DNA from: Candidatus Nomurabacteria bacterium
GTDB lineage: Bacteria; Patescibacteriota; Minisyncoccia; Phycocordibacterales; UBA918
Direction: 5' to 3'
DNA length: 64,000 nt
Assembly: GCA_023898565.1 (NCBI GenBank)
Contig: CP060228.1
Span: forward strand, 156,170 to 220,169
This document shows, one piece after another, positions 7,333-44,863 of the stretch (position 1 is the first letter of the stretch; the number at the start of each line of letters is the position of its first letter). Below the pieces are notes generated by a model. It did not search any database, was not told the origin of the DNA, and saw nothing but the letters and a program-made list of their open reading frames with translations. The position numbers and the translations under genes were made by a program.

Positions 7333-8961
7333 TCACGCGTTATCCTCAGTTCGTCGTTTATGCAGAAGGAATAGAATAAGCAGTACAAGTAACACTCCCA
7401 GCACAAGCGCAACTGATGGCCACCATGCAAAAAGTAAGTCTGGGAAAATCACCGGTGTTTTTGTTTCATCAATCGTTTCGATAAAGATTACTGGTGTTTG
7501 GTACGTACCAACTACAAATGCTTCATAATCGTAAATCTCTAAAATGAGCAGTGATTGACCCACTACAAACAAGGCCGGGATTTGTGCTTCATAGGCAGTT
7601 CGATCTCGATTGATGCGAAGCAGGAAAGAATACGTTTTTTCAGGATCGACTGGATTTTGAATCGTGGCAATAAGCGACTTCAAATTACCCGCGACCGCAG
7701 TCCGCGGCACAGACACGGTAAAGGCAGTAGCGGCATCAAGCTGAATTGGCGCGTCGGTAAACAAATACGTAAGATTCCCCTGAGCAACCAACACTTCAGA
7801 CAACAGAGGCATTTTCATTTCAACCGTGAACCGCTTAGTATCAATCGAAGACGTGGCATCATTCGTGTCCGGCACAGGCACTCCGATTATCGGCCCTTGA
7901 CCTGGTCCAGTCTGTTCAAAACCTGCGCCAGGAAATACAGTAGCCGCATATACAACAGCCACCGCTCCCGACGAAATATTGCCAAACTGATCATACACAA
8001 AAGCGGTGTAGTACACAGGCGAGTACTGATTAAGCACGCGCTCATCGGTGGCAGATTCTTTTATTCCTTGGTACACAATCGCACCATCCTGTGGATGTTC
8101 TGGGAACCCCAAATGACTGCGCACAATCCGAACGTGCGCAAGATCGGGCTGGCTAGGCAATTTCCATGAGAGCAGCACATTGGTGTCTACTGCAATCGCA
8201 CTAAATTGTTCAACGTTTGAAACCGCATATTGTCCTTCGTCTTTTACCGTAGTAAATGAACCTTGCTTGATTACAGTCGCAACTCCAAATGGAGTGTACC
8301 CAACAATTTCATACTCGTACTCGGTGCCTGGCTCAAGATCAGTCAAAAGCACCGTATGATCCATTGCAAATACACTACTCACCACATACCCAAGCTCATA
8401 CGATCCTGTTCTTCCCCATCGCACCTCGAGACGAGCCTGATGCGCAGTTGTCACAAGCAAACTAGTAGTAGACATACCGACATCAATCGCGATTGCTTCA
8501 GCTATTACACGCGCTGCGGTTCCACTCTGACCACTTACTGGTTCTGTAGTGGTGGCCACCGGCGGCACCACGGGTGGATTTGGTGTGGTAGTTGCTAGAG
8601 CATTTGAAGTAGACGAGTAATTAAATGATGGATCAAATGCTCGAACTACGTAGCTGTAGGTGGTGCTTGCAACCAAACCAGAGTCGGAATATGACAGTAG
8701 TGTAGTGGTCGCAATTGGGACGCCGTCACGCAAGACCGAATAACCTGACAACATGGTGTCGTCTGTTGCTGCAGACCAGGTAATATCAATTTGTGTCGAC
8801 GCAACCGGAATGACAGAAAGCAACGTTGGTGTAGTCGGCGGGTTAGCATCCACTCCACCGAACACACGCACTACAAAGGTTTCATCAGATTGAGCTGATG
8901 CAAAACTCGCGGCGGCAACAAAAAAGCAAACAATCAGTGCGCGTGTGATTAAATACTTCAT
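7333..8961 (-). CDS. Cell-surface protein with fibronectin type III-like domains and a C-terminal membrane anchor
   Basis: The start was set at MKYLITRALIVCFFVAAASFASAQ, a signal peptide (ATG whose complement is cat at 8959-8961). Fn3-like segments include TPTLLSVIPVASTQIDITWSAATDDTMLSGYSVLRDGVPIATT. The C-terminal hydrophobic helix WWPSVALVLGVLLVLLILFLL is followed by HKRRTEDNA. It is the last gene of the surface operon. Confidence 0.6.
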   Translation of the reverse strand: MKYLITRALIVCFFVAAASFASAQSDETFVVRVFGGVDANPPTTPTLLSVIPVASTQIDITWSAATDDTMLSGYSVLRDGVPIATTTLLSYSDSGLVASTTYSYVVRAFDPSFNYSSTSNALATTTPNPPVVPPVATTTEPVSGQSGTAARVIAEAIAIDVGMSTTSLLVTTAHQARLEVRWGRTGSYELGYVVSSVFAMDHTVLLTDLEPGTEYEYEIVGYTPFGVATVIKQGSFTTVKDEGQYAVSNVEQFSAIAVDTNVLLSWKLPSQPDLAHVRIVRSHLGFPEHPQDGAIVYQGIKESATDERVLNQYSPVYYTAFVYDQFGNISSGAVAVVYAATVFPGAGFEQTGPGQGPIIGVPVPDTNDATSSIDTKRFTVEMKMPLLSEVLVAQGNLTYLFTDAPIQLDAATAFTVSVPRTAVAGNLKSLIATIQNPVDPEKTYSFLLRINRDRTAYEAQIPALFVVGQSLLILEIYDYEAFVVGTYQTPVIFIETIDETKTPVIFPDLLFAWWPSVALVLGVLLVLLILFLLHKRRTEDNA

Positions 8962-8968
8962 CAACCCA

Positions 8969-9733
8969 TTATAACGGCAAAGCCGTGATTGTAGTGGTTG
9001 CGATATACACGCCATCTAATACCCCTGCCCCACTTCCGACACCCACTCGAAAGCGCACGGAAGTTGTCGCTCCACTTGGGTGGTTCGCTCCTGCGCCCTC
9101 CGCGATTACTTGAGCAGTCGTTGACACACCAGCCCAACACGCAAAAGCAGTATCTAGCGAGCCGGTGTTACAAATACCGCCGCCGTCTTTGAAAAACTGA
9201 GTTATATCAATCCCTTCGGGAGTGTATCCAAAGTACGCCTCGCCTGCCCCAACAGTGAAGGAGTAGTCTGGCTCAGCTCCCTCATTGTAATCGGCAATAC
9301 TATAGGGAGGGTTTTGCATAGCAGGATCGTTTTGTCCCTTGATTGTAAGCTGATAACCAGACGGACTATCAGTCACAACGGTAAACGTTGAGGATCCATT
9401 TGCTTCACCTCCGGTAATACCCGGAATTGACTGATCCATAATTACATTACCCGTGGTAGTCAAACCAATAAAGACCTCTTGCATTTGCTGATAGCCCGCT
9501 TTTAACATGTATGACGCGCTGCTCGATTCTCCTGTTGCAACTTCGCCAACGGTACTTTCACTGATGTATGAAGTAGACGTAGACAAACCACCACCCACAT
9601 TAAGACTATCACTCTGCAATTGATAGCTTGCGCTCGAGCGCACCTGGGCCAAACTCACATTCAGCAACAACAAGACAATCATTGTTGTTGCCCCCGCTTC
9701 AAATATGCTACGCAAAAGAACAGTTTTTTTCAT
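8969..9733 (-). CDS. Small secreted Ser/Thr/Gly-rich protein, paralog A of the surface cassette
   Basis: The signal peptide is MKKTVLLRSIFEAGATTMIVLLLLNVSLAQV. It shares a conserved framework with the 10826..11530 product: T.F.V.T....GY..TI..., then C..G......A..CW...STTA, then a C-terminal Y.ATTT. There is no confident family assignment. Confidence 0.5.
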   Translation of the reverse strand: MKKTVLLRSIFEAGATTMIVLLLLNVSLAQVRSSASYQLQSDSLNVGGGLSTSTSYISESTVGEVATGESSSASYMLKAGYQQMQEVFIGLTTTGNVIMDQSIPGITGGEANGSSTFTVVTDSPSGYQLTIKGQNDPAMQNPPYSIADYNEGAEPDYSFTVGAGEAYFGYTPEGIDITQFFKDGGGICNTGSLDTAFACWAGVSTTAQVIAEGAGANHPSGATTSVRFRVGVGSGAGVLDGVYIATTTITALPL

Positions 9734-9735
9734 GC

Positions 9736-10806
9736 TTACGCATCTTTTCGTTTAAATTCAAACGTACGGAAAAATGCTCTCACACTGAAAATTATAATAA
9801 ATAAAGTCAAAAACACGCCCCCGACAATCTTCCAAGGAAGCACCCAGAAGCTAACTGCCACCTCATCAACAATATCATTGTACCCACGATTAACCCGAGC
9901 AGTAACCGTATAACGTCCGAGTAAAAACTCTCGATTCCACTCAATTTCACGCACACGTAGCGATTTTGGCAATACAAACCAAGGTTCCAGCTCAACAAAT
10001 CCGACCTCTTCTCCAAACATGTTAGTGATTGAAATCTCACCGTATGGATTAAGGTGAACGGTACCAGTGTTTTCATATAAAATACCCATGTTAACCGGTC
10101 CCGACTCATACCACATCTTGTCATCAATCAAATCAATTGATTTAGTCTGTCCAGATTCATCGACCTCTCCTTTTACGCGAATGAAGAACAACGAACCAAC
10201 ACGAGCAATAATCGGAGAACGTGGCACCACTCCCTCGCCCTCTGCAGGGGCGGTCTGCACCGTAGATACCAATACGCTACCATAATACCCGCCTGGGCTG
10301 GTATTTGGTGGAACACTAATAGTGATCGGGATTCGTGCTCGTTCACCCAAATTAAGTCTCACCGTGTCTTCTGGGAATGAGATAAAATCACGCACACTAT
10401 ATGGCCCCTTTTTATCGCCAAGCAGCGTAACCGCTGAGCTTCCGTCAGCCGAACCCTCAACGTCCTCAATTTCTAGCAAATATTCTTTATCGTTAGCCAC
10501 ACGGTTGGCAACCGTGATTTCACGCACGACCGTTTGGCCCGGACTAAGTTCGATTTCTGTTCGACCAGGCCCAACCACAAAATCACCCACTTCGACATTA
10601 CCAAAAATACGTTCCACTTTATACCAATCAGTCACAGCTACTGTTTGTGTTGTAGTTGACGCGATAGCCTCGGTAGAGCTGGCAGCAGCCAGTTCATCTG
10701 CTACATCTGTACCGCCAATAGACTGCGCAAACACCTCTCCAAAGCAGAGAGGTGTGAGCATGAGAGTAAAAATAAACGCAACGAGAATCTGTGTTCTGGT
10801 AGTCAT
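9736..10806 (-). CDS. Signal-peptide plus C-terminal TM-anchored surface protein (central gene of the cassette)
   Basis: The start was moved to MTTRTQILVAFIFTLMLTPLCFGEVFAQS (ATG whose complement is cat at 10804-10806). The beta-rich ectodomain contains IELSPGQTVVREITVAN, an Ig or chaperone-like pattern. The C-terminal TM helix WKIVGGVFLTLFIIIFSV is followed by RAFFRTFEFKRKDA. The overall architecture resembles DUF916/DUF3324-type anchored proteins, but this is weak. Confidence 0.5.
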   Translation of the reverse strand: MTTRTQILVAFIFTLMLTPLCFGEVFAQSIGGTDVADELAAASSTEAIASTTTQTVAVTDWYKVERIFGNVEVGDFVVGPGRTEIELSPGQTVVREITVANRVANDKEYLLEIEDVEGSADGSSAVTLLGDKKGPYSVRDFISFPEDTVRLNLGERARIPITISVPPNTSPGGYYGSVLVSTVQTAPAEGEGVVPRSPIIARVGSLFFIRVKGEVDESGQTKSIDLIDDKMWYESGPVNMGILYENTGTVHLNPYGEISITNMFGEEVGFVELEPWFVLPKSLRVREIEWNREFLLGRYTVTARVNRGYNDIVDEVAVSFWVLPWKIVGGVFLTLFIIIFSVRAFFRTFEFKRKDA

Positions 10807-10825
10807 AGAGTGACTACAGAATAGC

Positions 10826-11530
10826 TTACTTAGCAATAACCGACAAGGTCACTGTTGCAGTATACCATTCTGCCTGTGGCACCGGAGTGGCACCACTCGG
10901 TACAGTGAGATTAAAGGTTACTGTTGAGGTGGCACCGGTCACCGCAGCAGCTGACGTGTCCATGATACGGAACGCTGTGGTACTCGGCGCCATCCAACAG
11001 CTTACTGCGCCGTTTTGTGAACCACCCAAGTTACAAGCGGCGCCGTTATTCAAGAATGACTGATCAAGATCTGAAGTAGAAGAAGCGGTCACGGTGTACG
11101 CAAATTGAGCTGAAGTACTAGCTACATAGCCGTAGGTTGGCTGTCCAATGGTGTATCCCTGGTAATCATGAATCGCATCACTAAGTGAGGTGTCTCCCTG
11201 CATTGCTTCCGCTGATCCATTATCAAAGAAATCGATCGTTACGTAATAGCCTGCCGTGTTGTTGGTTTGTACCACAAACTGTGTGGTACCGGTTGCTTGA
11301 CCACCAGTCACACCGTTCAGTGTACCAGCCATGGTTACGTTTGCTGGCGGCACCAAGAATGAGGTTTCGTCAGTGATCTGGGCTCGAACAGTAATATCTA
11401 CACTTTCGTCGCCGTGACTGATTGCCGGTTCGATTAGGAAATACGTCGCAAAAAGCGTCGCTACCATAGTGACACTAGCCCAGAAAGCAAATATTCCAGA
11501 CTGAGCAAAATGTTTAAGATTGTAATTCAT
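10826..11530 (-). CDS. Small secreted protein, paralog B of the surface cassette
   Basis: It has an N-terminal hydrophobic segment and shares the C...CW and STTA motifs and the C-terminal Y.AT.T ending with paralog A (AVSCWMAPSTTAFR versus AFACWAGVSTTAQV). Confidence 0.5.
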   Translation of the reverse strand: MNYNLKHFAQSGIFAFWASVTMVATLFATYFLIEPAISHGDESVDITVRAQITDETSFLVPPANVTMAGTLNGVTGGQATGTTQFVVQTNNTAGYYVTIDFFDNGSAEAMQGDTSLSDAIHDYQGYTIGQPTYGYVASTSAQFAYTVTASSTSDLDQSFLNNGAACNLGGSQNGAVSCWMAPSTTAFRIMDTSAAAVTGATSTVTFNLTVPSGATPVPQAEWYTATVTLSVIAK

Positions 11531-11632
11531 GATTAATTTGTTGCGTTTTTAACCTATTAATTATAGCAATTTTCTGCCACCTACGGCCCGTTTTGAGCTG
11601 TGCCTGTGTATAAAGTAAGCATACTATACACT

Positions 11633-14600
11633 TTAAATAGCCCCGCCGCCGCCGGCCCCGCCGCCGCCAACGTAGTGATACACCCGCACCTGAATCGCAT
11701 CAACCTGTACTGTATTGCTGGATGGATTACCCACAATGCGTACCGCAAAGTTAGCATTACTGAGCTGACCAGCACTCCAGCCATGGCCCCAGGTATCACT
11801 CGCACCGCCGAGTGTAATGACTTTATCAGCGGTCGTGAGTGTTGGTGTTGTCTTGGCACTAGTCCACGTGGTACCGCCGTCCCACGAGAGCTGAACACCA
11901 ATGTCGCCGGCGGCGGTAGTACCAGACACTTCGAGCTTCACTTCAATACCGGTCACCACACTACTGCCGCCAAGCGCATAGCCGTACGCTGAGTATGAAG
12001 AAGAGGCATTAGTGGTGTTGGTTGTCGCATAGGTGCCGTCGGTCTGGTCATAGGCATTGGCACCGGTAGTGAAGTCACCAGCATGAGCAGTTGGCCACTT
12101 GTAATTTGGATCATCCCCAATCTGTTCCCCTGCCTCTTCGGTGCCGCCAGTCTCGACCGAACGACCTTCTGGTGCCGAATCGCCGACAGCTGCACTACTG
12201 CCGCCTCCGCCGCTTTGATTGTTGCGATTGTGCTGCACTGAGTCGACAGTACCGTACACATCCTGTACTCCCACTTCATCCGCCACTGCCAGATCATCCG
12301 CATACAGCGCAAGCATCATAGCAGCGCCATTTTCCGGCGCATTCCAGTCTGCAATTACAAGGTAGTTCGTGGTAGTAGTAGAGAGGAAGTCAGTTGTGAA
12401 AACAATCGTGCCAGTCTTGTCATCAAGTGTGAAAACACCTGTACCACCAACCTGCTCATCGCCTCCGTCGTAGAGAGCGTCATTATTGTGGTCACGGAAT
12501 AAGCGAATATTTGAGAAGTCACTCGCATCAATCTTCTTCGCACCGCTGACGGTAATAGTGAGGTCGGTCACCGTAGCAGAACCACTCTCCGGGATAAGCT
12601 TGAAAGCAAAGAGTGCTTCATCAGTTTTGTTTTGGAAGTTAAAGGCATTATTCACTTGCGTGTCGTCATGATTTGTAATCGTGGTGGAACCAACAACGAG
12701 AGATGACGTGCTGAACGTCCAGTTGACATTGTTTCCGTAATCGACCGAATCAAGAGCAGCAACAGTCGACGAAGCGCCGCTGTCTTCTACATTTACATAT
12801 CGAACATTCAGCTGACTACCTGGAATATCGAGGTACCACTGCGTACCCTGCTCACTTGAGCGAAGCCACACAGGAGAAGAAGCACCGCCTTGCCAGTCTA
12901 CGCTCTCAAATGTACTCGTAGCGCCTGCCACAAACTGAGCAGATGTACTTGCAGTCATGGTAAACGTACCGGTTGTTTCTACCGGCATACCGAAAATGAC
13001 TGATTGGGTAGTTGTACCATCCTGCGACGTGTTTGAAATGGTGAGATCATAGAATGCACTGTCACCAGACAATGTACCCGTGGCGGTTTGTTGCGTAACA
13101 CCCGAGAAAATCACCTCTGAAGTAGAAGCTGCTAAGATGCCGTTGTTGGTATAATCTCCACCCACAGAAAGTGTCGCGTCAGTCAGGTTTAAGTAACCGT
13201 CGTTGGTCAGAGAATCTGAGACAGTTACTGTAGACGTACTAATTACAGTCGCATAACTGGTACTTGCGTTAGTCAGAGAATCAAGGCTTAATGCATCGTA
13301 GATTGTTAGCGATGGAGTCACGCTTCGCATCACATTATCATCACTCCAACCAACCGCCACAAAATAACTATCGCCATACACAACCGATTCCCAGCTGCCA
13401 AGACCCTCGCGAACAGTCCACGTAATACCATCTGGTGAGGTTATGACGCGATCTGCGCCTGCTCCAACTGCTACAAAGAGACCGTTGCCGTAAGCCACCG
13501 AGTTCCATGAGCCTGTTGTTGAACGCACCGTCCAATTGACACCGTCGGGTGAGGTCATGACGCGGTCGCCAGAGTACCCCACCGCTACAAAGAGACCGTT
13601 GCCGTAGGTGACTGATAGCCAGCTGTCGTTATTTCCGGCGGCTGAACGCACCGTCCAATTGACACCGTCGGGTGAGGTCATGACGCGGTCGCCGGAGCTG
13701 CCTACCGCCACGAAGAGACCGTTACCGTAGGTGACTGATTGCCAGCTGTCGTTATCCCCGGCGGCGGAGCGGACGGTCCAAGTGATGCCGTCGGGTGAGG
13801 TCATGACGACGTCGTCTGCGCCATTACTAGCCCAACCCACCGCCACGAAGAGGCCGTTGCCGTAGGTAACATCATACCAGTCATCATTATCCCCCGCAGC
13901 ACTGCGCGCGGTCCATGCCCCACCTCCACTACTCGGCGCCACCACCACATCTCCGAGTGCGTTAGCTCCCACCAAGTCACCCATCACGAGCGGATCTGGT
14001 CCAGTGAAGTAGGTTGTGCCACCGTTGTTATCAAAGGTGCCATTCTGGCTAAAGTCACCACCGATAGTCAGAAGACTTGGCGCGACCAGAGAGCCAGAGA
14101 TGGTGAGGTTTGAGGTAGACGCATTGTTTGAGGCAGTGTATGAACCCTCAATAGAGATGTCGCCTAAAGCTGAAGAGCCGGTGAGGGTGCCAGAGAGCGT
14201 TTTGCTGGTGCCGGTGAATTTTGCTAAACCACCATTATTATCAAACACTCCGCCGTCGTTATGGAATGAACCAGAGAAGGTAGATGACGCAGCATTTACG
14301 AAAGTGCTACTACTCCAAATATATAACTCCTTACCGTCTTCAACGGTAAGAGTGTCACCCGTAGTAGAGGCGGTGTATCCAATATCAGCATGTTGGCTTG
14401 CATCATACGTATCCAAATCAGCCAACGTAGTACTTGTTGCTCCCTCCTGACGTACAATTATCCGATTATTGTAGATATCAACGCCAGTTAGATTCTCAGT
14501 TGACGAGGCAAATTTTGACACAACAGTTCCTTCGTCAAAACCAGAATTCCAAATCCAGATAACAAATGGCGTGTCGACACCAACACCATTACTATTATCA

Positions 14601-14845
14601 ACTGTGAAACTAAAATTCCCGCTATTGTCTGATGAAGTCGCCTGCACGCTGACAGTCGAAGTACCAATTGCTAAAAACAAAGATTCTGCAAATGAAGCAG
14701 CTGTCGCACCTTCATCATCATAAATTGTACCTGAAATCGTAAATGTACCTGCCTCAGCCAGCATCGGCGCAAACACAATCACAGCACAACCAGCGACAAC
14801 CGCGGCTTTAACGTACTCAATGATGTTTTTAATGGCTACTGTCAT
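11633..14845 (-). CDS. Large secreted surface protein (1070 aa) with an Asp-box/BNR-like beta-propeller built of tandem repeats
   Basis: It has an N-terminal signal-like segment. At least six tandem units of about 41 aa have the form W.SVTYGNGLFVAVG....VMTSPDG(I/V)(T/N)WTVRSAAG.ND. S-x-D-G-x-T-W is an Asp-box-like motif. There are Gly/Asn/Thr-rich beta regions and a Gly-rich C-terminus ending GGGGAGGGGAI. Confidence 0.65.
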   Translation of the reverse strand: MTVAIKNIIEYVKAAVVAGCAVIVFAPMLAEAGTFTISGTIYDDEGATAASFAESLFLAIGTSTVSVQATSSDNSGNFSFTVDNSNGVGVDTPFVIWIWNSGFDEGTVVSKFASSTENLTGVDIYNNRIIVRQEGATSTTLADLDTYDASQHADIGYTASTTGDTLTVEDGKELYIWSSSTFVNAASSTFSGSFHNDGGVFDNNGGLAKFTGTSKTLSGTLTGSSALGDISIEGSYTASNNASTSNLTISGSLVAPSLLTIGGDFSQNGTFDNNGGTTYFTGPDPLVMGDLVGANALGDVVVAPSSGGGAWTARSAAGDNDDWYDVTYGNGLFVAVGWASNGADDVVMTSPDGITWTVRSAAGDNDSWQSVTYGNGLFVAVGSSGDRVMTSPDGVNWTVRSAAGNNDSWLSVTYGNGLFVAVGYSGDRVMTSPDGVNWTVRSTTGSWNSVAYGNGLFVAVGAGADRVITSPDGITWTVREGLGSWESVVYGDSYFVAVGWSDDNVMRSVTPSLTIYDALSLDSLTNASTSYATVISTSTVTVSDSLTNDGYLNLTDATLSVGGDYTNNGILAASTSEVIFSGVTQQTATGTLSGDSAFYDLTISNTSQDGTTTQSVIFGMPVETTGTFTMTASTSAQFVAGATSTFESVDWQGGASSPVWLRSSEQGTQWYLDIPGSQLNVRYVNVEDSGASSTVAALDSVDYGNNVNWTFSTSSLVVGSTTITNHDDTQVNNAFNFQNKTDEALFAFKLIPESGSATVTDLTITVSGAKKIDASDFSNIRLFRDHNNDALYDGGDEQVGGTGVFTLDDKTGTIVFTTDFLSTTTTNYLVIADWNAPENGAAMMLALYADDLAVADEVGVQDVYGTVDSVQHNRNNQSGGGGSSAAVGDSAPEGRSVETGGTEEAGEQIGDDPNYKWPTAHAGDFTTGANAYDQTDGTYATTNTTNASSSYSAYGYALGGSSVVTGIEVKLEVSGTTAAGDIGVQLSWDGGTTWTSAKTTPTLTTADKVITLGGASDTWGHGWSAGQLSNANFAVRIVGNPSSNTVQVDAIQVRVYHYVGGGGAGGGGAI
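13431..13925. repeat. Near-identical 123-bp tandem repeats (about 4 copies plus diverged flanks) inside the 1070-aa gene
   Basis: Units begin at 13554, 13677 and 13800, each with gtcatgacgcggtcgcc...ccgtcgggtgag, and match at nearly every base. A shorter 114-bp unit begins at 13440. They encode the propeller blades. Confidence 0.7.
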
Positions 14846-14859
14846 ACAATTTTTCTTTA

Positions 14860-17800
14860 CTACACAGCATCTTCGCTATGTGGAGACTCTGCTTCTACTT
14901 CCTCAGTTGCCGAAACGGGGTCGGCTTCCGTTGTATCTGCAGCCGGCGGCTCCGGTACTTCCAGCGACTCATCTTCCGTTATGACTATATTTTCTTCATT
15001 CTCTGCCACGACTTCGTCCCCAAGCCCTTCACCTGCTTCTGTCACAGGCACACCTTGCTCAGCTTCTGTTTCAGATGAAGAAGTAGCCGTCTCCACTGGC
15101 GCCGGCGGCTCTTCCGTGGTGGTGGCTACCTCGTCGGTGGAAGTGGCGGAGTTCGGAGGGAGCACCTCAGTTGGTGGCTCCGATACAGCACCTTCTTCAG
15201 AGGATTCGCTACCCTCTCCTGTCACTGGTGAGTTATTTGAACTCACTGGCGCGCTAGAATTTGTGTTCAGCATAGTACGCAAGTCATCAGCGGTGACACA
15301 CACTCCGTCGACACAGAGCTCACTAGTCTCAACCTTGTCTGCCTTAAGTGTAAAGACTGAAAGAACGCCGTCTACGAAGTTGTTGGCAAGTGTCACTAGG
15401 CGATCGAAGATTGTTTCGTCTTCATTATCACCAACCGTCTCAATCGATGAGGTGCTAAAGAGTGTGCCGAGCGACGCAAGCTGTGAATCATCAAACCAGC
15501 GGTAGCTTCGATCAACAAACATTACCACGCGACCGACCTTCACTGCCGTACCGTCCGCCAATCGCTTTGTTTCACTTCGCTCATCACGCAGCGCGTCCAT
15601 TTGCTCAGCCACACTCTCTGCTTCAGCGATGTGGTTTGCTTCATCAATCTGACCTTGTGTAGTGGTGGCCGAGAGCGGCACACACGGTTCATCGCCTACC
15701 GCATTACCACCACCGTAATAACAACCATCATCAAGTCGCGGATCAAGATTGGTATAAATTGGCTCATACACTGGCTCCACCATGTCGTCACCAAATTGAT
15801 TGAGATATGTTTCACTGTACTTGCGTGCATCATCAAAGTCCTCTAGAGCAATACCAATAGTTGCTCCCGTGCCAGTTGCCTTCATGGCTACGCCCGGCAG
15901 AGATGAAAGCATAAGTGAATCACCACGCTTAATTGGACCGTTTTCGGTTGAAAGCTTCACTGGCACACGTCCAGATAGCGCCAGTGGGTACCCACGCTCT
16001 CCGGCACGAAGTGAGGAATCGTCAAAACCAAGAAGCAGACCCGGCTTGGTAGAAACCACACCAAGAACCGGCATGTCACTTCCCTGTTCTGCACGATCAA
16101 TTGAAAGCTCACCATCAAGCACCACCACTTCGCCTGGCTCGAGATTGGTGCTGCTGAAATACATTTCTGCGAGGTCAGAATTTCCAGTCAGACTTTCTAC
16201 TGAAGTGATGCGCCCTGACGTAGAAGCAGTACACGAACCATCATTATCGACACAAATACCACCAAAACCAATCTGAAGTCCTGCAAGATGGTTGGTGGTA
16301 CCATCACCGATGGTAGTCGTGCCGTAGGCTGATACTGTAAAGACCGATGCGCCGCCGTTTTGGAAGTCGAGGTACTTAGATGTGGACGAAGAGAATGACC
16401 CCGTGCCATTACCAAAATTCATCTCAAGGCCGGTACCGGCGAAGGTTGAGCTTGACTGGAACAGTGAAAGCAAGCTGGCAGTAGTAAGCGTATCAGTATA
16501 CGCACGAATTGCATTACCTTGAGCAGTACCTTCGGTCTCAAAGAAACCAGCTGCTGGCTCGTAGGTATCGCCTGCTTCACCAGTCGTGACTGCTCGCACA
16601 CCAAAAGTGCGGGCGAAGGCTGAAATCGCCGTATTTTCACCGTACGTATTCGCACCGCGATTGGCTTGTACTTCAAGCGTACGCACCGTATTACCATATG
16701 TAGTATCGTCCCGCAGGCGAATCATACTCCCCACAATGGTGGTAGTGGCAGTGTTATTAGCATCGAGGAAAAATCGATTACCATACTGCACTGCTGAAAG
16801 AACACTGTTTTGTGTTTCGAGGTACTGATCAAGTCCAACCACTCCTGCTCCAGAAAACGCAGTATTTTGAATTGCCAATTTTGCCGCTGGTGAAGTGGTG
16901 CCAATACCAACCCTACCTGCGTTTGTAATATGAAAGAGCGCATCACCGGTTGATGACGCAACCGTAAGGAGCGGCTTGGTAGCATCGGTTGCGTCACCAA
17001 GCACGCTGAAGCGTGCCCAAGGCGAGGTAGTACCAATACCCACAGCAAGATCGGTCACACTACCCGCTCCATCAGATTCACCATACAGAGTAAGTAGTGA
17101 GTTACCATCAATAGCAGCAGTATAACTTTCGACAGTACCAACCGAAGCGCCAGCAGTGACGCCCATGTCAGTCCACGTCACCACTCCAGCATCATCCTCA
17201 AACTTCATGTTGCCCAACGCCAGGTTCTCAATAGTGGTCTGGTTGGTTGCTGCGTTATACGAAATTGCACCATTATTAACATCAAAGCCACCAGAGATAA
17301 GTGTATTTGCATACGAACCTGAGGTATCAATCCGGAAGATTGGCGACACTGAACTTGAAGTAGCGATAGTCCACGCAAAACTATCACCATTCACTACCGT
17401 ACTGGTGGCAGCAGTGAAGTAATGAAGAAGGAGTGAAGATGCACTTGAAGACGCGAAGTTAATCACGTTTGAGTCGAGCCAGGTGTTGCCGGCGACAGAA
17501 AGTTTTGCCGCTGGACTTGACGTACCCAGGCCGAGATTGCCACTGTTGGTCATGGTTAAGACACGACCGGAAGCATTGTCGAGTGTGAGAATATCTCCTG
17601 CACCTAGCTGTGTGATAGCAGCGGACGTTGCAGTAGTTGAACCAATGATGCTGAAGAGATTGTACCCGCGAGCGCTATCTGTCGTGATCGTAGTCCTATC
17701 CCATTCGTTGTAGCGAGTACTCGCACTCGCATCCGCGATGTAGTTTGTGCTGTTTGGATTTTCGAAATGATTTGAAGCAAGAGTCGTATCAACAGCACCG

Positions 17801-20800
17801 CTGGCAATTTCTATCAACGCATACGTCGACGTCGAATAAATACTATTTGCAACGATTGCGATGTTTGTGGTTTCTGCAATATCGATTGCAGGATGTGCAC
17901 CAGACAAACCTATTGAGTACAATTGGTTATTAGAAATGACATTGTTGGCAGCATTGCCGCCGTACCTACTATATGCAGCAATTGCGGCATGTCCAACATT
18001 CTCAATTTTGTTGTTAGAAATAGTGTTATCTGAAGCACCCCAACCTAGAAAGATACCGTTTGCACCAACAAAGCTGCCGAAGATGTTTCTGATAACATTA
18101 TTGCTAACAATATTATGTGAAGGAGCATAGCTATACGGAGCGTCAAAATAAATACCTGCACTAAGATTTGATAGCTGGTTACTCGAAATAACGTTGTACA
18201 TAGACTCCTCAGTTAGAGTAACACCCTTGCCAGTATTGGAGATAACGTTATTAGCAACATTAGAGTAAGTTATATTCTCGAAGTAAAGAGCACTGTCAGC
18301 ACTCGCCCACATTGTATTGTTCTGAATTGACAACCGACTCGAATTATATGCAGCTATGCCGTCCCAATTTTCACTAATGTTGTTACTAGCAACCTCCACA
18401 TCAGACGAACCGTCAATATCAATGCCTGCGATATTGTTATTCTTGATTCTTATGCGACTGGAAAGAAAAACGTTTATTCCATATATATGTTTATTATTTA
18501 TCACAAGAACATCAGTCGAATTGTTAACATCAGCACCATAGTTATCAACATTAACTACCTCAAGCTCAGATATGGTTGAGCTACTTGAATCACTGAGGTA
18601 CACCGCAGTTTGTGAACTAGATTGGTTTGCCTGATTACCATCAATTTTGAGACTAGAAATTGCCACTCGAGGAGTGCTGCTTGCTCTCAAAATAACCACA
18701 TCACCCAAATCGTTATTGTCCTTCAATTTAATCACAGTAGAAACTCCTTGCCCGATAAGCTGAGTGTTGGTCGCCATATTTATTGCGATACCTGGTGCGG
18801 TGGATGTAGAAACTTCAAAGTTACCAGCCAAGAGATACACCGTACCACCACCGCCATTGGCATACACATAATCAATCGCCTGCTGAATCTCAACTTCGTC
18901 ACTCGTACCATCAGCCACGTAGTCAGCATATGCCTTTTCTGCTGCTGGAGAGTCTGAGGCTGCCACCACCACGGAAGTGTCGCCTGCGGTATTGAGACAG
19001 TTTCCATCGGCAGTCTGGAAACATCCACCAGAGAGAGCGATACCATTGGTGAAAGTTGAGGTAGCTGTCGTAGATGCCACAATCGCTGTATTAAACGTAC
19101 TCGTCGCACTCGTAAATGCTCCAATCACATTCGCACCCACGGTGCTGCCAGTACCGAGCTTGAAAGTGTCGTCTGAATCATCAAGACCAAAGTAATAATC
19201 GAGTGCGTTACCATCAAACAAAGTAAAGGTGTCTTCAGCTAAGCCAGAGCCAAGCGTGTAGCCGCTCCCTGTTCCACCAGTAGAGGCGAGTGAAAGGATA
19301 CCAGAACTATCAACGCTCAGCTCTGCATAATTTGAACCATCATATGAAAGCCGGAGGCTGTTGCCTGCTCCGAAAATATCGAGCATCGCGCCAGGTGAAG
19401 CAGTACCCAAACCAAGATTGGTACCGTCGTACACAAAGGTGGAATCAAACGCGAGCGCTGAACCTGAGACATACGGAATCGCATTACTGGTATAAGACCC
19501 CGGCGTATCAGACAACCCTAAGAAAGTGCCATTACCAAGGCCGAGCGATGAGGTGGCAATGTCTGCCCAGGCGGTACCATTCCAGTAAAAAAGGTCACCG
19601 TAATTTTTGGTCATGGCCGCCACGTCAGACAATTCTTCAATAGAGTTGTCAGTCAAATTATCAGCCGTACGCGCTGTCTGTTGTGTTTCCCAAAAATTTG
19701 CTGAAGTTGTTGAGAAGCTATTAGCTATGTAATAACTACCCTCTTGACCATCGAATGTGCCCACCCAATCACCGCTCGTGTCGGACAAAAAGCCTAGACT
19801 AGAAGTTGCGACCCACTCCACACCCGCACCCGTAGTCTGAAGCACCTGACCAGTAGTACCTCGAGTAGCATTATTGTCATACACACCTCCCGTAAGAGCT
19901 ATATCGCCAGCTACTGATAGCTTGGCGTACGGTGAGGTGGTACCGATGCCGACGTTGCCAGTTGGAGTAATAACCGCTGCTGTACCAGAACCAAAAACAG
20001 AACTGTTGACATTAAATTCAATACCTTTTCCAGAACCTCCATGTATAGCAGTATTTGCAGTACTACCGTTATACCCAAACGCAGCACGATCATTAGTGAT
20101 ACCTATATAGTTTACATCCGTAATAGCACCGTAACGGTTGACATAGATATGCGAGCTAGTACTCGTTGTTTGTATACTACCTGACACGTCAAGCCTAGCA
20201 GTTGGTGTTGATGTCCCAATACCAACGTTGCCGCCCGAGGTGATGGTAAGCCGTGAAGTGTTATTGGTAATGAGTCGTAAATCATGATTTGAGAAGGTGC
20301 CTAGGAAGCCTTGGAAGTCCTCACTGCGTACATCAACTTTTACCTCATTGGTCGTATCAGTGAAGCGAGCGCCAGCATTTGTCGCGCCTGCAACATTTAA
20401 TAAGCGATCCATAGTAGTCGTGCCAATTCCTACTCTACCAGCAGCCGTCACTGTAAATAAATCATTCGAATTATAGTCCAGCAACGACAAAACATCGCCT
20501 GGTGCAATACTTCTAGTTTGCTGGATTGTTAATACTGGAGTGCCGTCAAAAGTATTAGCAATCATTTGATCAGCCTCATCGGAACGTAAGAAAGACGACG
20601 AGGCAACACCACCAAGCTTCATCGATTCGAAAGCGGCGGGCACTGCACCAAGTGGCTTGCGAGGTGACATCTCGCCGTCCCAGGCAGGCGCTCCAGTGCC
20701 GCCAATCTCCACACCCAAATAGAGCGTCTGACCGAAGTCGACACTAGTAAGCGGTGAAGTGGAGCCAAGCATTACGCTAAAAAGACCATTAGTGACTTGC

Positions 20801-21054
20801 ACTTGATCAGCGCCAGTGAGTGATTCGGTCCATACTGCCGACGTAGTAGCCTGACTGGTGCTCTGCAACAACCAAAAACGCATGTTGTACGAACCATCAG
20901 GCACTGCCACTCCTGAACTGTCGGTAAGCTTACCTTGGTAATTAATTTGCTGATTTGGCTCAGCAGATACAAAACTTACCGCAACAAACAAAGCAAACAT
21001 GGCAAGACTCATTGCCCTGGTCACTTTCTTGATTGTCGAATAAGCTAAAAACAT
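14860..21054 (-). CDS. Giant secreted surface protein (2064 aa): repeated GIGTTSP.AKL motif region, parallel beta-helix (pectin-lyase fold) repeats, and an acidic disordered C-terminal tail
   Basis: It has a signal peptide (MSLAMFALFVAVSFVSAEP). A motif is repeated at least seven times: GRVGIGTTTMDRLLNV, GNVGIGTSTPTARLDV, GNVGIGTTSPYAKLSV, LGLGTASPGAMLDI, LGLGTSSPAAKLSV, GIGTTSPWARFSV and GRVGIGTTSPAAKLAI. A long run of NNxI(S/A)xN beta-helix rungs follows (NNNIAGIDIDGSSDVEVASNNISEN...NNVISNTGKGV...SNNKIENVGH...). The C-terminal roughly 200 aa are rich in Pro, Glu, Thr and Ser. Confidence 0.65.
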   Translation of the reverse strand: MFLAYSTIKKVTRAMSLAMFALFVAVSFVSAEPNQQINYQGKLTDSSGVAVPDGSYNMRFWLLQSTSQATTSAVWTESLTGADQVQVTNGLFSVMLGSTSPLTSVDFGQTLYLGVEIGGTGAPAWDGEMSPRKPLGAVPAAFESMKLGGVASSSFLRSDEADQMIANTFDGTPVLTIQQTRSIAPGDVLSLLDYNSNDLFTVTAAGRVGIGTTTMDRLLNVAGATNAGARFTDTTNEVKVDVRSEDFQGFLGTFSNHDLRLITNNTSRLTITSGGNVGIGTSTPTARLDVSGSIQTTSTSSHIYVNRYGAITDVNYIGITNDRAAFGYNGSTANTAIHGGSGKGIEFNVNSSVFGSGTAAVITPTGNVGIGTTSPYAKLSVAGDIALTGGVYDNNATRGTTGQVLQTTGAGVEWVATSSLGFLSDTSGDWVGTFDGQEGSYYIANSFSTTSANFWETQQTARTADNLTDNSIEELSDVAAMTKNYGDLFYWNGTAWADIATSSLGLGNGTFLGLSDTPGSYTSNAIPYVSGSALAFDSTFVYDGTNLGLGTASPGAMLDIFGAGNSLRLSYDGSNYAELSVDSSGILSLASTGGTGSGYTLGSGLAEDTFTLFDGNALDYYFGLDDSDDTFKLGTGSTVGANVIGAFTSATSTFNTAIVASTTATSTFTNGIALSGGCFQTADGNCLNTAGDTSVVVAASDSPAAEKAYADYVADGTSDEVEIQQAIDYVYANGGGGTVYLLAGNFEVSTSTAPGIAINMATNTQLIGQGVSTVIKLKDNNDLGDVVILRASSTPRVAISSLKIDGNQANQSSSQTAVYLSDSSSSTISELEVVNVDNYGADVNNSTDVLVINNKHIYGINVFLSSRIRIKNNNIAGIDIDGSSDVEVASNNISENWDGIAAYNSSRLSIQNNTMWASADSALYFENITYSNVANNVISNTGKGVTLTEESMYNVISSNQLSNLSAGIYFDAPYSYAPSHNIVSNNVIRNIFGSFVGANGIFLGWGASDNTISNNKIENVGHAAIAAYSRYGGNAANNVISNNQLYSIGLSGAHPAIDIAETTNIAIVANSIYSTSTYALIEIASGAVDTTLASNHFENPNSTNYIADASASTRYNEWDRTTITTDSARGYNLFSIIGSTTATSAAITQLGAGDILTLDNASGRVLTMTNSGNLGLGTSSPAAKLSVAGNTWLDSNVINFASSSASSLLLHYFTAATSTVVNGDSFAWTIATSSSVSPIFRIDTSGSYANTLISGGFDVNNGAISYNAATNQTTIENLALGNMKFEDDAGVVTWTDMGVTAGASVGTVESYTAAIDGNSLLTLYGESDGAGSVTDLAVGIGTTSPWARFSVLGDATDATKPLLTVASSTGDALFHITNAGRVGIGTTSPAAKLAIQNTAFSGAGVVGLDQYLETQNSVLSAVQYGNRFFLDANNTATTTIVGSMIRLRDDTTYGNTVRTLEVQANRGANTYGENTAISAFARTFGVRAVTTGEAGDTYEPAAGFFETEGTAQGNAIRAYTDTLTTASLLSLFQSSSTFAGTGLEMNFGNGTGSFSSSTSKYLDFQNGGASVFTVSAYGTTTIGDGTTNHLAGLQIGFGGICVDNDGSCTASTSGRITSVESLTGNSDLAEMYFSSTNLEPGEVVVLDGELSIDRAEQGSDMPVLGVVSTKPGLLLGFDDSSLRAGERGYPLALSGRVPVKLSTENGPIKRGDSLMLSSLPGVAMKATGTGATIGIALEDFDDARKYSETYLNQFGDDMVEPVYEPIYTNLDPRLDDGCYYGGGNAVGDEPCVPLSATTTQGQIDEANHIAEAESVAEQMDALRDERSETKRLADGTAVKVGRVVMFVDRSYRWFDDSQLASLGTLFSTSSIETVGDNEDETIFDRLVTLANNFVDGVLSVFTLKADKVETSELCVDGVCVTADDLRTMLNTNSSAPVSSNNSPVTGEGSESSEEGAVSEPPTEVLPPNSATSTDEVATTTEEPPAPVETATSSSETEAEQGVPVTEAGEGLGDEVVAENEENIVITEDESLEVPEPPAADTTEADPVSATEEVEAESPHSEDAV

Positions 21055-30206: not shown

Positions 30207-32429
30207 CTAACAACCCTCCTGCGGATCGTTACCGTTCTCAATGTTGCCAATGAAACAGTTGGCAGTGGTCTCGAAATCTGGCAACGCCTCCTTTGCCTCT
30301 TCTAGCACAGTAATTGCCTGCTCCGGCTCACTATTTTGGTAGTAGAGATACGCGAGTGTGGCCCATGTCTGTGGCTCTTCAGCCCACTTCTGTGCACCAT
30401 CTGGCGCAGCCTGGGTGCGATACTCGAAGAGTTTAATTGCAATGTCGTACTGCCCAAACTGATTGGCGGCGCTGATGAGGAAGTCGCTCGCTGCCAAGCG
30501 ACGCATAATTGCGTCATCGGTGATTCGATCATCAGCACTTATCATAAGTAATCGCGCTTCATCTGGCTTTTGCGCATACAAAAGTCCCGCTGCGTAATAC
30601 TCACGTGCCTCAAGATTGCGCACGTCGAGTTCAAAGGCGGTCTTAAAGTATTCGAGCGCCTCGTCATTCTTTCCTTCTGAGAGCGCCACAAAACCTTGCT
30701 GCTCAATAATGGCCTGCTTTAGCGGTGAGTATTCACGCGCGAGTGCCATATGCTCAGCTGCTCTCTCAAGATTACCAATCGCGCGATAGTAACTTCCCAC
30801 AAACACATGCACGCGCGCGTCACCAGGCTTTTCCGACACTAAGCGACTCAGTTGTTCTTCAGTGTAGGACTGATACTCGGCCCGTACCGCTTCAGGAATC
30901 TTTGTGTCACGCACCACACTCATAGTTTGCTGAGCCAATTGTTCAGTAATCTCTTGATGAGCAAATGATTCGCGACCAATCGCCTGCTTAAAGTATCCGA
31001 GTCGCTCAGCCGGATCTGCCGCACGAAAAGCCAAAATAATATCACCTGCCGCATGCATACCCGGCACATGCGCAAAGTAAATCACCGCCACCACAAGCAC
31101 GGCCATGACCGGCGCAGCAAATTGTTCAATGATTGACTTGTCTACCTTCCACTCCGCTACAGCCTTTGGCACGAGTCCAACTCGTGAATTAATCAAACCA
31201 AGAATAATTGCAAAGAAGATGTAGCTGACAATATTGTCAAACACTACGAGATTGTGGGTGAAGTACCCGGCCAAGATACCAAGGAGCACCCCACGCTCCA
31301 TCGCATTAAACGCATGATCCTCCTTGTCGATAAGTGGACGAACAAGCAGGTACCACACGCACCACCCAAAGATGCTGAGATACACCACCAAACCAAGGAT
31401 GCCGCCGGTCACCAGCCAATCCATGAAAATGTTGTGCGATCGATCAAACCACTGCTCTTGACCGTACAGTCGTGGATCATAGTATTTGTTAAAGACGTAA
31501 TTGAAGTTGCTCTGGCCATACCCAAGGACTGGACTTTCTTTCACCCCTTCCCAAGCAGTACCCCAAATGATAGTTCTGATTTCCAAGTCGCCCAGAGAAA
31601 TATTGGCGATACGTGCCAAGTTTGGGCTATTCTGCACAAATGCGGTATCACGAGCCGCAATAAACGTACCAACGCCAAGTAGTAGCACCACAAATGCACC
31701 GATGGCATACTTGCGATACTGCACAAACTGCTTGCCGAAGAGACCAATGTACGCTGCCATCACCATGATGCCAACCGCCAAACCAATTGCCGTACCACGA
31801 GTACCGGTCTCGATGAGCACAAAGGTAAACATGGCAGCCAGCACGCCATAGAGCACTTTATGGAACGTGACACGCGTCTCTACAAAGAGCCAAAACGCTA
31901 CGAAAATATGGAAGAGCATGTACACCGCCATGTATGCGGCATTACCCAAACGGCTATCGATACGACTGCTGCCATCGACAAATCCACCATACTGCGCCAA
32001 GCCATAAAACGCTACTGCAAACGCCACGAAGAGTGAGGTGTTGAGCAGTCGCTGCCAATGCTCTTTCGTTTGCAGCACACTTCCTGCCACCAGCATGTAC
32101 AAGAATGTGTGCACAAGCGATACGTAGCCATCCATACGCTCGAAGTTGCTCCAGAAGCTTACATTGCGATTGAGACCCCACCAGTCGGCCGCAAACATCA
32201 CCACCAAAAGCGCACCAAAGCTCCAGACAATACCCGAAACTTTCGGCCGATACTTTACTTCATACAACGCGAGAATTGCCCACGCCGCGAATGTTACATC
32301 GACAATAATGCGAAACCAAAAATTCTTACCAGTAATGTACGGGAAGAAGTAATCATTCTCCACGTACAAGGTCAAAAACGGCACGGCAAAAATACCTGCG
32401 TAGACCAACCATTTCATTACGTCTTTCAT
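30207..32429 (-). CDS. O-antigen ligase (Wzy_C) family polytopic membrane protein with C-terminal TPR repeats
   Basis: It has about 12 TM helices with a Wzy_C-like core (GTRGTAIGLAVGIMVMAAYIGLFG). The soluble C-terminal portion has TPR-like repeats (LERAAEHMALAREYSP..., EALEYFKTAFELDVRN...). Confidence 0.65.
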   Translation of the reverse strand: MKDVMKWLVYAGIFAVPFLTLYVENDYFFPYITGKNFWFRIIVDVTFAAWAILALYEVKYRPKVSGIVWSFGALLVVMFAADWWGLNRNVSFWSNFERMDGYVSLVHTFLYMLVAGSVLQTKEHWQRLLNTSLFVAFAVAFYGLAQYGGFVDGSSRIDSRLGNAAYMAVYMLFHIFVAFWLFVETRVTFHKVLYGVLAAMFTFVLIETGTRGTAIGLAVGIMVMAAYIGLFGKQFVQYRKYAIGAFVVLLLGVGTFIAARDTAFVQNSPNLARIANISLGDLEIRTIIWGTAWEGVKESPVLGYGQSNFNYVFNKYYDPRLYGQEQWFDRSHNIFMDWLVTGGILGLVVYLSIFGWCVWYLLVRPLIDKEDHAFNAMERGVLLGILAGYFTHNLVVFDNIVSYIFFAIILGLINSRVGLVPKAVAEWKVDKSIIEQFAAPVMAVLVVAVIYFAHVPGMHAAGDIILAFRAADPAERLGYFKQAIGRESFAHQEITEQLAQQTMSVVRDTKIPEAVRAEYQSYTEEQLSRLVSEKPGDARVHVFVGSYYRAIGNLERAAEHMALAREYSPLKQAIIEQQGFVALSEGKNDEALEYFKTAFELDVRNLEAREYYAAGLLYAQKPDEARLLMISADDRITDDAIMRRLAASDFLISAANQFGQYDIAIKLFEYRTQAAPDGAQKWAEEPQTWATLAYLYYQNSEPEQAITVLEEAKEALPDFETTANCFIGNIENGNDPQEGC

Positions 32430-32934
32430 ATGGGTGAAACTATACCACGTACGCCCGATAAGCTCCGACTAGACGAGGCCGAGATTTGGAGGTGTAGGCT
32501 ATACACAGAAAGACTGGTGGGCGCTTCACTACAAGAGTACTTCAATTTTCATAGTCGCTTCGCTTCTTGAAAATTTAGTCGCACGACCCACCGGTTTTAT
32601 CCTCTACCGTTTCTCTCCCTTTCTTTTCCCTTCTTTCTCGCGCAGCTCTTTGTGTCCACTGTCACCATTTCTCAATTGCTCTTGCAAGACATAAACTGCA
32701 GTCACTTTGCACATTTTTACGAGAAACAACACATCAAACTTAAAGAGACATCTTTAAAGGTTCTACTTATGGTTAACAATGTACTTAATTACTAATTAGC
32801 TGCTAATATTAACCTATGAGAAAGATGCAAAATTTTGGTTACACTATTTTGTAACTAATTACAAAGTATAACTGTTAGACACTAGATGTGGTCATACAGA
32901 ATTTGTAACATCGAATTCATTCTTCAGGAAAATT

Positions 32935-34161: not shown

Positions 34162-34166
34162 AATTC

Positions 34167-34934: not shown

Positions 34935-34937
34935 AGC

Positions 34938-38018: not shown

Positions 38019-38030
38019 AGTAATGACTAA

Positions 38031-39182: not shown

Positions 39183-39195
39183 ACGTAATTTTTAA

Positions 39196-40050: not shown

Positions 40051-40142
40051 ATTAACACTCTAAATTTATTTTTAGTTACAACCAAAAGAATCAGGTGGCT
40101 TTTTAAAAATAAGTCAACAAAAAGCTCTTTAATTTAAACTAA

Positions 40143-40859: not shown

Positions 40860-40880
40860 ATGTATAACAATATCATTCGC

Positions 40881-42532: not shown

Positions 42533-42582
42533 AATCTATACAACTTACCACGACTACATGAAGTAACAATCGTAGCTAAATG

Positions 42583-43467: not shown

Positions 43468-43506
43468 AATACCACACTCATCTGCTGATACAGCAGCCTA
43501 TTTTAC

Positions 43507-44844: not shown

Positions 44845-44863
44845 TACCAGCTAGTATAGCAGG

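Follow-up and report, generated by a model that had tools for sequence, protein, structure and literature searches.

What would a single-membrane bacterium assemble at its surface from two small secreted paralogues that are encoded on either side of a membrane-anchored protein? The question is raised by a locus in a 64,000-nucleotide stretch of a Candidatus Nomurabacteria genome (contig CP060228.1, positions 156,170 to 220,169), called the window throughout. No part of the candidate phyla radiation (CPR) is larger or less well understood than the ultrasmall Paceibacteria (Parcubacteria), and to our knowledge almost nothing is known about their contact with hosts. A sequence-only reading of the window had described a cassette of three genes, here called p254, p366 and p234, and all three open reading frames (ORFs) were found on the minus strand at the positions where that reading had placed them. 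The cassette had been drawn too short. It runs on past position 8969 into a fourth gene, p560, which follows after 7 nt and is conserved together with the others. The functional unit is a four-gene operon, p234-p366-p254-p560, conserved across Paceibacteria. With moderate confidence we read it as encoding an usher-less, chaperone-assisted surface fibre of a single-membrane CPR bacterium, a minimal Paceibacteria variant of the Pam pilus.

Two small paralogues and an anchored WxLIP homologue

BLASTP aligned p254 and p234 with 34% identity over 155 aa (E=7e-17), and the profiles of the two families, each built from about 55 orthologues, matched in hhalign with a probability of 100% (E=1.6e-40). 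The proposed paralogy was borne out by both comparisons. Family-wide, the two proteins have in common the motifs G-Y-x-[LV]-T-I, C-x10-11-CW...STTA and, near the C-terminus, Y-x-A-T-x-T. The shared motif framework described earlier is therefore conserved in both families, but its exact spacing was slightly off for p234.

Both proteins consist of a single domain. In the AlphaFold2 (AF2) monomer model of p254, the core from about residue 88 to 254 reached a predicted local distance difference test (pLDDT) score above 90, and the N-terminal 57 residues stayed below 50. Structural matches of the core included FimG/I/A, PapG/K/F/H/A/E, CS20, AggA and MyfA as well as cannulae, DUF1102 tubes, a bundling pilin and TasA; Foldseek returned the same set with weak E-values. 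Pilins of chaperone-usher (CU) systems outscored TasA-class proteins against the p254 core, TLP-1b being the exception. The small proteins display the truncated immunoglobulin (Ig)-like domain of the CU pilin type, and as judged from the models they carry a pilin fold of the Csu/Fim/Pap type. Searches of PDB sequences with p254 gave nothing significant.

A link to a described pilus came from NCBIfam. The one match of p254 in this database was NF058579, CPR_pilus_PamT (45 bits, E=8.5e-12). All 41 of 41 p254 orthologues and 47 of 60 diverse relatives matched the same model, with the best score (58.5 bits) for a Nealsonbacteria orthologue, covering positions 7-206 of 241 in the hidden Markov model (HMM). 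By these profile matches p254 is a distant homologue of PamT, not an equivalog. The suggestion of a wholly distinct family had to be abandoned, since the distant relative PamT is already modelled in NCBIfam.

The Pam pilus was described in Candidatus Mycosynbacter amalyticus, which belongs to the Saccharimonadia (Troman et al., June 2026 preprint, bioRxiv 10.64898/2026.03.03.709456). Cryo-electron microscopy of the PamA/PamB filament revealed donor-strand exchange: the C-terminal domain, a truncated Ig-like fold, is filled by a linker strand that comes from the adjacent subunit. PamC and PamD (WP_260763277.1 and WP_260763284.1) are two PapD-like chaperones with C-terminal transmembrane (TM) helices, PamT (WP_260763289.1) is a single-domain tip subunit without donor linker, and PamR (WP_260763282.1) is an RbmA-like fibronectin type III (FnIII) protein with a C-terminal TM helix. 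The system is reported mainly from Saccharimonadia and Microgenomatia, and tail-fibre-like genes adjoin the pam genes; the preprint makes no mention of WxL, DUF916 or Paceibacteria (10.64898/2026.03.03.709456).

The feature that distinguishes p254 from p234 is its N-terminal extension of 57 residues, which comprises three 19-aa copies of the pattern xSxSxxYxLxSxxxxxGxG. Conservation of the extension across 247 diverse members was on a par with that of the core (2.52 vs 2.45 bits per column), and an extension HMM gave no match in the p234 family. In p254 relatives of 330-2,187 aa, Laminin_G_3, DUF2341, FnIII or MG2 domains are followed by the extension and the core, with the extension directly before the core at the position of the donor linker in PamA/B. 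One orthologue (L033) is built in another way: the extension stays N-terminal and a lectin-like domain of 350 aa is inserted before the core. By analogy, the extension is a candidate donor-strand module. In TLP-1 fibrils an N-terminus that is disordered in AF2 serves as donor strand (PMC11494351). Mean-field direct-coupling analysis (DCA) of 422 sequences (Meff 329) recovered plausible core contacts. Among the top 100 pairs, 20 lay within the extension (5.8% expected) and formed hairpin ladders between successive repeats. TafC of the haloarchaeal Tat-fimbriae was matched by six of the long relatives and was rejected as a relative, the matches being due to laminin-G domains and not to the pilin module.

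By eye, the motifs of the small proteins also resemble those of WxL proteins (GYxLTI and GWxL; Y.ATTTxTAL and Y.TTLTWTL), and this resemblance prompted a comparison with 12 genuine WxL domains taken from 8 Firmicute plasmids. The hhalign probability was 0.5% (E=0.12) over 28 C-terminal columns, and an assignment of p254 and p234 as WxL domains was rejected. Moreover, the Pfam family WxL (PF13731) had no match at the locus, two or more WxL motifs were found in none of 111 orthologues, and the WxL chain of PDB entry 9i25 was not among the top structural matches of the small proteins.

Similarity to the WxL systems was found in the middle protein instead. p366 begins with a hydrophobic, signal-like segment, and residues 337-355 of the 366-aa ORF form a C-terminal TM segment (Kyte-Doolittle 2.34) for which AF2 models a helix. 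The signal peptide and TM anchor assigned to this protein by the sequence-only reading are thus both supported by hydropathy. In its AF2 model (pLDDT 80), a signal helix and a disordered linker of Ser/Thr/Ala precede two β-sandwich domains, and a long helix follows at the C-terminus. On its own, p366 matched the Pfam family WxLIP_PGBD (DUF916, PF06030) weakly (E=0.004). The same family was matched by 43 of 43 p366 family members (best E=4.4e-6), all of them under the gathering score of 27.3 bits. With the p366 family profile, EfmWxLIP1 of E. faecium was the sole significant match among PDB sequences (E=3.9e-5), and hhalign against eight WxLIPs from annotated Firmicute plasmids gave a probability of 95.7% (E=8.8e-9) over 106 columns, confined to the first domain. 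A DUF3324 match for the second domain was not obtained in the Pfam scan of the family. The top Foldseek match was 9i25_C, a WxLIP bound to a long WxL protein (E=1e-12), in an alignment of 273 columns that spans both domains. RbmA came next, followed by the CU chaperones CfaA, CsuC, Caf1M and CupB2, with E-values of 1e-8 to 1e-6 for CsuC, CfaA and Caf1M. p366 is a remote homologue of WxLIP (DUF916) that lies below the threshold for Pfam membership, and the analogy to these proteins suggests that it most likely acts as a membrane-tethered chaperone.

These comparisons bear on several points made before. Profile-profile alignment, which had been proposed as a check, linked p366 to WxLIP but was negative for the small proteins against WxL. 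An LPXTG motif was found in none of the six locus proteins, which likewise lack WxL and type IV pilin motifs, no sortase was detected among the neighbour genes scanned, and none of p254, p366 and p234 matched an enzyme family in Pfam or NCBIfam. The earlier statement that no diagnostic motif is present holds for WxL, sortase and type IV pilin signatures but was too strong, because homology to DUF916 is measurable. The comparison with fibre subunits and an anchored assembly factor of WxL or Csu type agrees with the DUF916 homology, the CsuC-like fold and the pilin fold, but it missed the fourth gene, which encodes an FnIII-TM protein.

This fourth product, p560, has a predicted signal peptide and a short N-terminal strand that is conserved. 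They are followed by about three FnIII-type domains, a further domain towards the C-terminus and a TM segment (Kyte-Doolittle 3.02) with a basic tail. Pfam fn3 was matched with E=1.3e-7, accompanied by a second fn3-like match and by FnIII matches among PDB sequences. The gene is co-conserved in nearly all loci, including two distant ones (L074 and L076, see below). By analogy to PamR, p560 is a candidate for the fibre terminator and membrane anchor. A relationship of p560 to WxLIP was considered and rejected, as the hhalign match (84%) covered 17 columns, which is too short, and was of odd composition.

Conservation of the operon was surveyed with one genome per GTDB species, which gave 61 loci labelled Kaiser-, Nomura-, Taylor- and Vogelbacteria and Paceibacterota. 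The gene order p234-p366-p254-p560-GAPDH-RpiB is kept in nearly all of them. p366 is invariably encoded between the two subunit genes, and p234 lies directly upstream of this candidate chaperone gene in about 55 of the 61 loci. Two distant lineages, represented by a Nealsonbacteria contig (L076) and a JGI contig (L074), hold the same four families in the same order, and the exact operon is present on 12 public contigs. The samples behind ERZ27248697, SRR12358675/6 and SRR7638775 contain it. There were 1,439 homologues of p366 in a set of 5.8 billion proteins, and the p254 profile collected 1,223 clusters at 50% identity; both families are large and wholly unannotated. Upstream of p234 the 61 loci have either a helix-turn-helix (HTH) protein, a 370-aa protein and GatB, or an insertion of giant proteins. 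The insertions sit between the HTH gene and p234, number one to several and are highly variable in size. A search for the triplet next to giant adhesins in related genomes had been suggested as a check. The triplet and its order are kept, but the giants vary and are missing in some loci.

Proposed assembly and competing explanations

Paralogy, domain architectures, folds, homology to WxLIP and PamT, and conservation of the operon are established. From them we infer a chaperone function, polymerisation, an order of subunits, an anchoring role and any role in host contact. In the fibre that we favour, all four products would be exported by Sec. The C-terminal TM helix of p366 would keep this protein fixed to the outer side of the membrane, where it would capture the exported subunits. 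Its two Ig-like domains would bind and stabilise their incomplete Ig fold, in the manner of PapD/CsuC-type chaperones and WxLIP. p254 would be the polymerising subunit, and through donor-strand exchange its extension would complete the fold of the subunit before it. p234 shares the core; because it lacks the extension it could only accept a strand, and it would therefore be placed at the distal end as tip or cap. With its N-terminal strand, FnIII stalk and C-terminal TM helix, p560 would end the fibre and anchor it through the wall. In some relatives, fused lectin-like domains would turn the subunit into an adhesin.

Several observations weigh against this scheme. The fibre is a prediction from genes and monomer models. 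All scores of the p254 family against the PamT model are far below its equivalog cutoff (45-58 bits vs 240). PamT itself is described as having no donor linker, and this is at odds with the homologous region of p254 acting as a donor. Much of the inter-subunit interface in Pam is provided by an N-terminal β-sandwich domain that p254 and p234 do not possess; the N-terminal domains of some p254 relatives are of the Laminin_G_3, DUF2341 or fn3 type. There is one chaperone here and there are two in Pam, and the equivalence of p366 and p560 to PamC/D and PamR is an analogy of architecture and fold to the published description, not a direct sequence comparison. In DCA, the top 100 contained 2 extension-core pairs (39.7% expected), a null result that is uninformative for or against strand exchange. 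Because of the internal ladders and the near absence of coupling to the core, the extension looks like a three-stranded β-unit of its own rather than a single donor strand. Furthermore, the proteins are unusually conserved for pilins (p366 has 37-68% identity in the locus survey vs 66-82% for GAPDH) and the operon sits among housekeeping genes. A host-specific adhesin would fit such conservation and setting no better than a core role in the envelope.

The homology of p366 invites an explanation that we consider unlikely, namely a non-filamentous complex of the WxL type in which p366 is a membrane-anchored scaffold, a role proposed for WxLIP, and holds p234 and p254 at the cell surface, as monomers or as a heterodimer, in the role of wall-associated adaptors or receptors. 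The small proteins of such a complex would not polymerise and might, for example, display or retain the giant neighbours. A scaffold would agree with the WxLIP homology of p366, with its best structural match, a WxLIP bound to WxL, and with the missing coupling between extension and core. One p366 with two paralogues also matches the commonest Firmicute cluster, which has a single WxLIP alongside two WxL proteins (PMC10599100), and the order of a small protein followed by WxLIP is common to both. The small proteins, however, lack WxL homology in hhalign and WxL motifs in the 111 orthologues, as described above; their structural neighbours are polymerising pilins, and a sequence link leads to the pilus protein PamT. 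A WxL-type complex gives no role to the 57-aa extension or to the FnIII-TM protein, and the LPXTG protein or sortase of typical WxL clusters is missing. Strong conservation could instead mean that pilin-like folds have been used for something other than an adhesive pilus, such as a strut across the wall, an anchor for an S-layer or sheath, or a surface lattice related to division or shape. Identities of 60-68% for p366 and 55-67% for p254 where GAPDH has 73-82%, the constant location, flanked in nearly all loci by GatB/HTH and GAPDH/RpiB, the abundance of both families (1,439 p366 homologues and 1,223 p254 clusters) and the wealth of wall and glycan genes in the wider window would all suit a core envelope module of this kind. 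Nevertheless we judge it to be quite improbable, as the lectin and adhesin domains fused to relatives (Laminin_G_3, DUF2341, fn3 and MG2) point to outward ligand binding, variable giant adhesin-like genes are inserted alongside, and the homologous Pam system makes long free pili. A matrix fibre that assembles itself without chaperone like TasA/TapA or archaeal bundling pili, p366 having an unrelated role, is very improbable. There is no SipW/TafD-type signal peptidase at the locus and no match to TasA or camelysin families, CU pilins outscore TasA-class proteins, the TafC matches stem from shared laminin-G domains, and p366 is always encoded between both subunits.

A broader version of the proposed fibre, which we hold to be doubtful, would make WxL clusters, Pam pili and this operon branches of one ancient superfamily of monoderms, with the operon as its minimal and most conserved form. 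If so, the systems of this superfamily would do without an usher and would combine Ig-fold subunits with a chaperone tethered to the membrane. p254 would polymerise through a three-repeat β-module, an assembly mode so far undescribed, and the WxLIP/DUF916 proteins of Gram-positive pathogens would be assembly chaperones and not passive scaffolds.

Gene layout, signal peptides and variable neighbours

The genes form an uninterrupted minus-strand run between 7.3 and 21 kb of the window. Within the four-gene unit the intergenic gaps are 19, 2 and 7 nt. The sole sizeable gap of the run, 102 nt, lies upstream of p234 and holds TGCTATAAT, a weak candidate for a -10-like promoter element by its sequence. 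It was not reported by a consensus promoter scanner since a -35 element is missing, and a scan for promoters and terminators around the operon gave nothing convincing. For p366, the ATG at 10806 is the most likely start codon and was selected by independent gene callers as well.

Coordinates of the operon and adjoining features in the window
Feature	Positions	Strand	Description
p2064	14860-21054	(-)	giant secreted protein, upstream of p1070
p1070	11633-14845	(-)	giant secreted protein, upstream of p234
TGCTATAAT	11560-11568	(-)	extended -10-like element, located 29 nt upstream of the start codon of p234
p234	10826-11530	(-)	ORF; small secreted pilin-like subunit (putative), without N-terminal repeat extension
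p366	9736-10806	(-)	356 aa from ATG at 10806; ORF reaches TTG at 10836 (366 aa)
p254	8969-9733	(-)	predicted signal peptide aa 1-29, extension aa 30-87, pilin-like Ig core aa 88-254
p254 N-terminal extension	9473-9646	(-)	aa 30-87; three degenerate 19-aa repeats
p560	7333-8961	(-)	542 aa from M19; ORF reaches 9015

Signal peptides were deduced from hydropathy and from cleavage motifs of the Ala/Gln type. The hydrophobic N-terminus of p234 precedes a conserved E-P and a site that resembles AXA. In its family (residues 30-41), the h-region of the signal peptide ends in an invariant Glu-Pro (...LIEP...). The p254, p366 and p560 families have Ala before and Gln after the predicted cleavage site, and the signal peptide of p366 is unusually conserved (P-L-x-G-E-V-F-A-Q). 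These peculiarities may indicate a dedicated step of processing or recognition.

Some observations on relatives of the operon genes stand by themselves. NCBIfam 'choice-of-anchor T' was weakly matched by 4 of 43 p366 homologues (best E=6.2e-5); C-terminal anchors of alternative types occur in that family, which may be one more link to Ig-like proteins anchored at the surface. In one database protein of 577 aa (P0249), a p366-like N-terminal part of DUF916 type is continuous with an entire p254-like module, its signal peptide included. An artefact of read-through or of assembly at the 2-nt junction is more probable than a real fusion. Between the p254-like and p560-like genes of the two distant lineages, a small gene for a four-helix bundle of the 23S_rRNA_IVP type is present (L074:11137-11523 and L076:8818-9192), and L074 has further copies nearby.

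The giant slot varies among loci in presence, size and identity. Giants are absent from L004, L009, L014 and L015, where the HTH protein abuts p234. In the window, p2064 combines a tail-fibre-type N-terminus ('INYQGKLTD', NCBIfam Bdello_MAT_N) with a parallel beta-helix (Pfam NosD/Beta_helix) and an acidic low-complexity tail. p1070 has about five tandem 'TSPDG-x-WT-x-RSAAG...YGNGLFVAVG' repeats and a poly-Gly C-terminus. Neither has a recognisable anchor. The giants are a variable cargo of this slot and possibly adhesins that associate with the fibre. A pilin-like domain or extension was found in none of the giant proteins of the 61 loci, and the idea that they plug into the fibre by their 'INYQGKLTD' N-termini was rejected, as these scored at most 2.3 bits against the extension HMM and shuffled controls 3.8. 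Directly downstream of the orthologous cassette on the JGI contig (3300029286; L074:13374-19427) are components of a diversity-generating retroelement, namely a reverse transcriptase (RVT_1), bAvd-like four-helix proteins and a 951-aa protein of FGE-sulfatase/C-type-lectin fold, which begins with 'INYQGKLTD'. This gene content suggests that hypervariable adhesins are associated with that locus.

Further away, positions 32900-47100 of the window hold a polysaccharide-biosynthesis island with a flippase, several GT2/GT4 glycosyltransferases, four methyltransferases, a polysaccharide deacetylase and a UDP-glucose dehydrogenase-like gene. Its GC content falls to 0.34-0.39 between 34000 and 42000, a drop that suggests horizontal acquisition. 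A Wzy_C O-antigen-ligase-like protein with TPR repeats (30207-32429) adjoins the island. A secreted protein with Lamin-tail and PKD domains (52614-53999) adjoins a homologue of the TrwB-like coupling protein of type IV secretion (54006-56066), and the two may be part of the monoderm-type type IV secretion system reported for Patescibacteria. At 47172-48194 there is a strong homologue of CofD, the 2-phospho-L-lactate transferase family (E=6e-82). Coenzyme F420 synthesis is unexpected in such a genome, and the homologue probably lies in the YvcK-like branch of the family.

Significance and comparison with known systems

The Pam pilus, the WxLIP scaffold and the logic of CU assembly are already known, and what is described here is a minimal form in a lineage without earlier report. 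The homology between a CPR pilus-type chaperone and WxLIP/DUF916 and the conserved triple-repeat extension, both read from sequence, may be new to specialists. The operon would take Pam-type machinery beyond Saccharimonadia and Microgenomatia into many Paceibacteria genomes. As a minimal system of four proteins (two single-domain subunits, a chaperone and an anchor) it would be far easier to reconstitute than the operon of M. amalyticus. The homology of p366 ties CPR pili to the WxL clusters of enterococci, listeriae and lactobacilli, and it suggests in turn that WxLIP may act as a chaperone. The triple-repeat extension fused to lectin domains provides a sequence handle for CPR adhesins, all of which are at present annotated as hypothetical.

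Among strand-donation fibres built without chaperone, TasA/TapA, archaeal bundling pili, Tafi, cannulae and TLP-1 have an Ig-like or jelly-roll core that is completed by a donated N-terminal strand, and such fibres occur in single-membrane organisms, as here. They have no dedicated gene for a two-domain chaperone, whereas p366 is present in this operon. TasA and Tafi use a dedicated signal peptidase, and scans of the operon and locus revealed none of the SipW/TafD type. Neither p234 nor p254 matched TasA, camelysin or TafA/E-type families in Pfam and NCBIfam.

CU pili (Csu, CupE, Fim, Pap and CFA/I) share with the operon the fold class of the chaperone, an N-terminal extension before the Ig-like core and the C-terminal strand G-x-Y-x-A-T. 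They depend on an outer membrane and an usher, neither of which is present here. Their chaperone is soluble in the periplasm, and p366 is predicted to be tethered to the membrane. In the locus and its neighbours, usher, PapD-family (PF00345/PF02753) and fimbrial Pfam models gave no match. Moreover, the CU extension is a single strand of 10-20 residues, in contrast to 57 residues with three repeats in p254.

The WxL (Csc) clusters of Lactobacillales and Listeria comprise a WxLIP (DUF916-DUF3324-TM), small and large WxL proteins and an LPXTG protein (PDB 9i25, 9i1y). Like p366, WxLIP has a signal peptide, two Ig-like domains, of which the first is homologous between the two as DUF916, and a C-terminal TM helix. 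In both cases the gene for one anchored protein lies beside those for a pair of small secreted paralogues, and large surface proteins are encoded nearby. AF2 predicts insertion of a strand of WxLIP into WxL, a chaperone-like contact. The small proteins of those clusters are WxL domains with Trp-x-Leu motifs, and p254 and p234 are without both; where WxL clusters have an LPXTG protein and often a sortase, the operon has the FnIII-TM protein instead. WxL proteins are regarded as peptidoglycan-bound monomers and not as fibres.

Like the operon, Pam is CPR-specific and Sec-exported, and its pilins are built on the truncated Ig-like domain. Both have a two-domain PapD-like protein held at the membrane by a C-terminal TM helix (p366 resembling PamC/D), an FnIII protein with C-terminal TM helix as proposed anchor, subunits that carry paired cysteines, and a neighbour of tail-fibre-like type, and both lack an usher. 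They differ in the two-domain major pilins of PamA/B/E type, which are absent here, where both subunits are single-domain. p560 exceeds PamR in size, having about three FnIII domains and one additional domain. Pam is hosted by Saccharimonadia next to ATP synthase genes, this operon by Paceibacteria/Parcubacteria between GatB and GAPDH, and sequence conservation is far above that reported for Pam pilins. The operon departs from each of the known families, Pam, WxL, CU and TasA/Tafi, in at least one defining feature.

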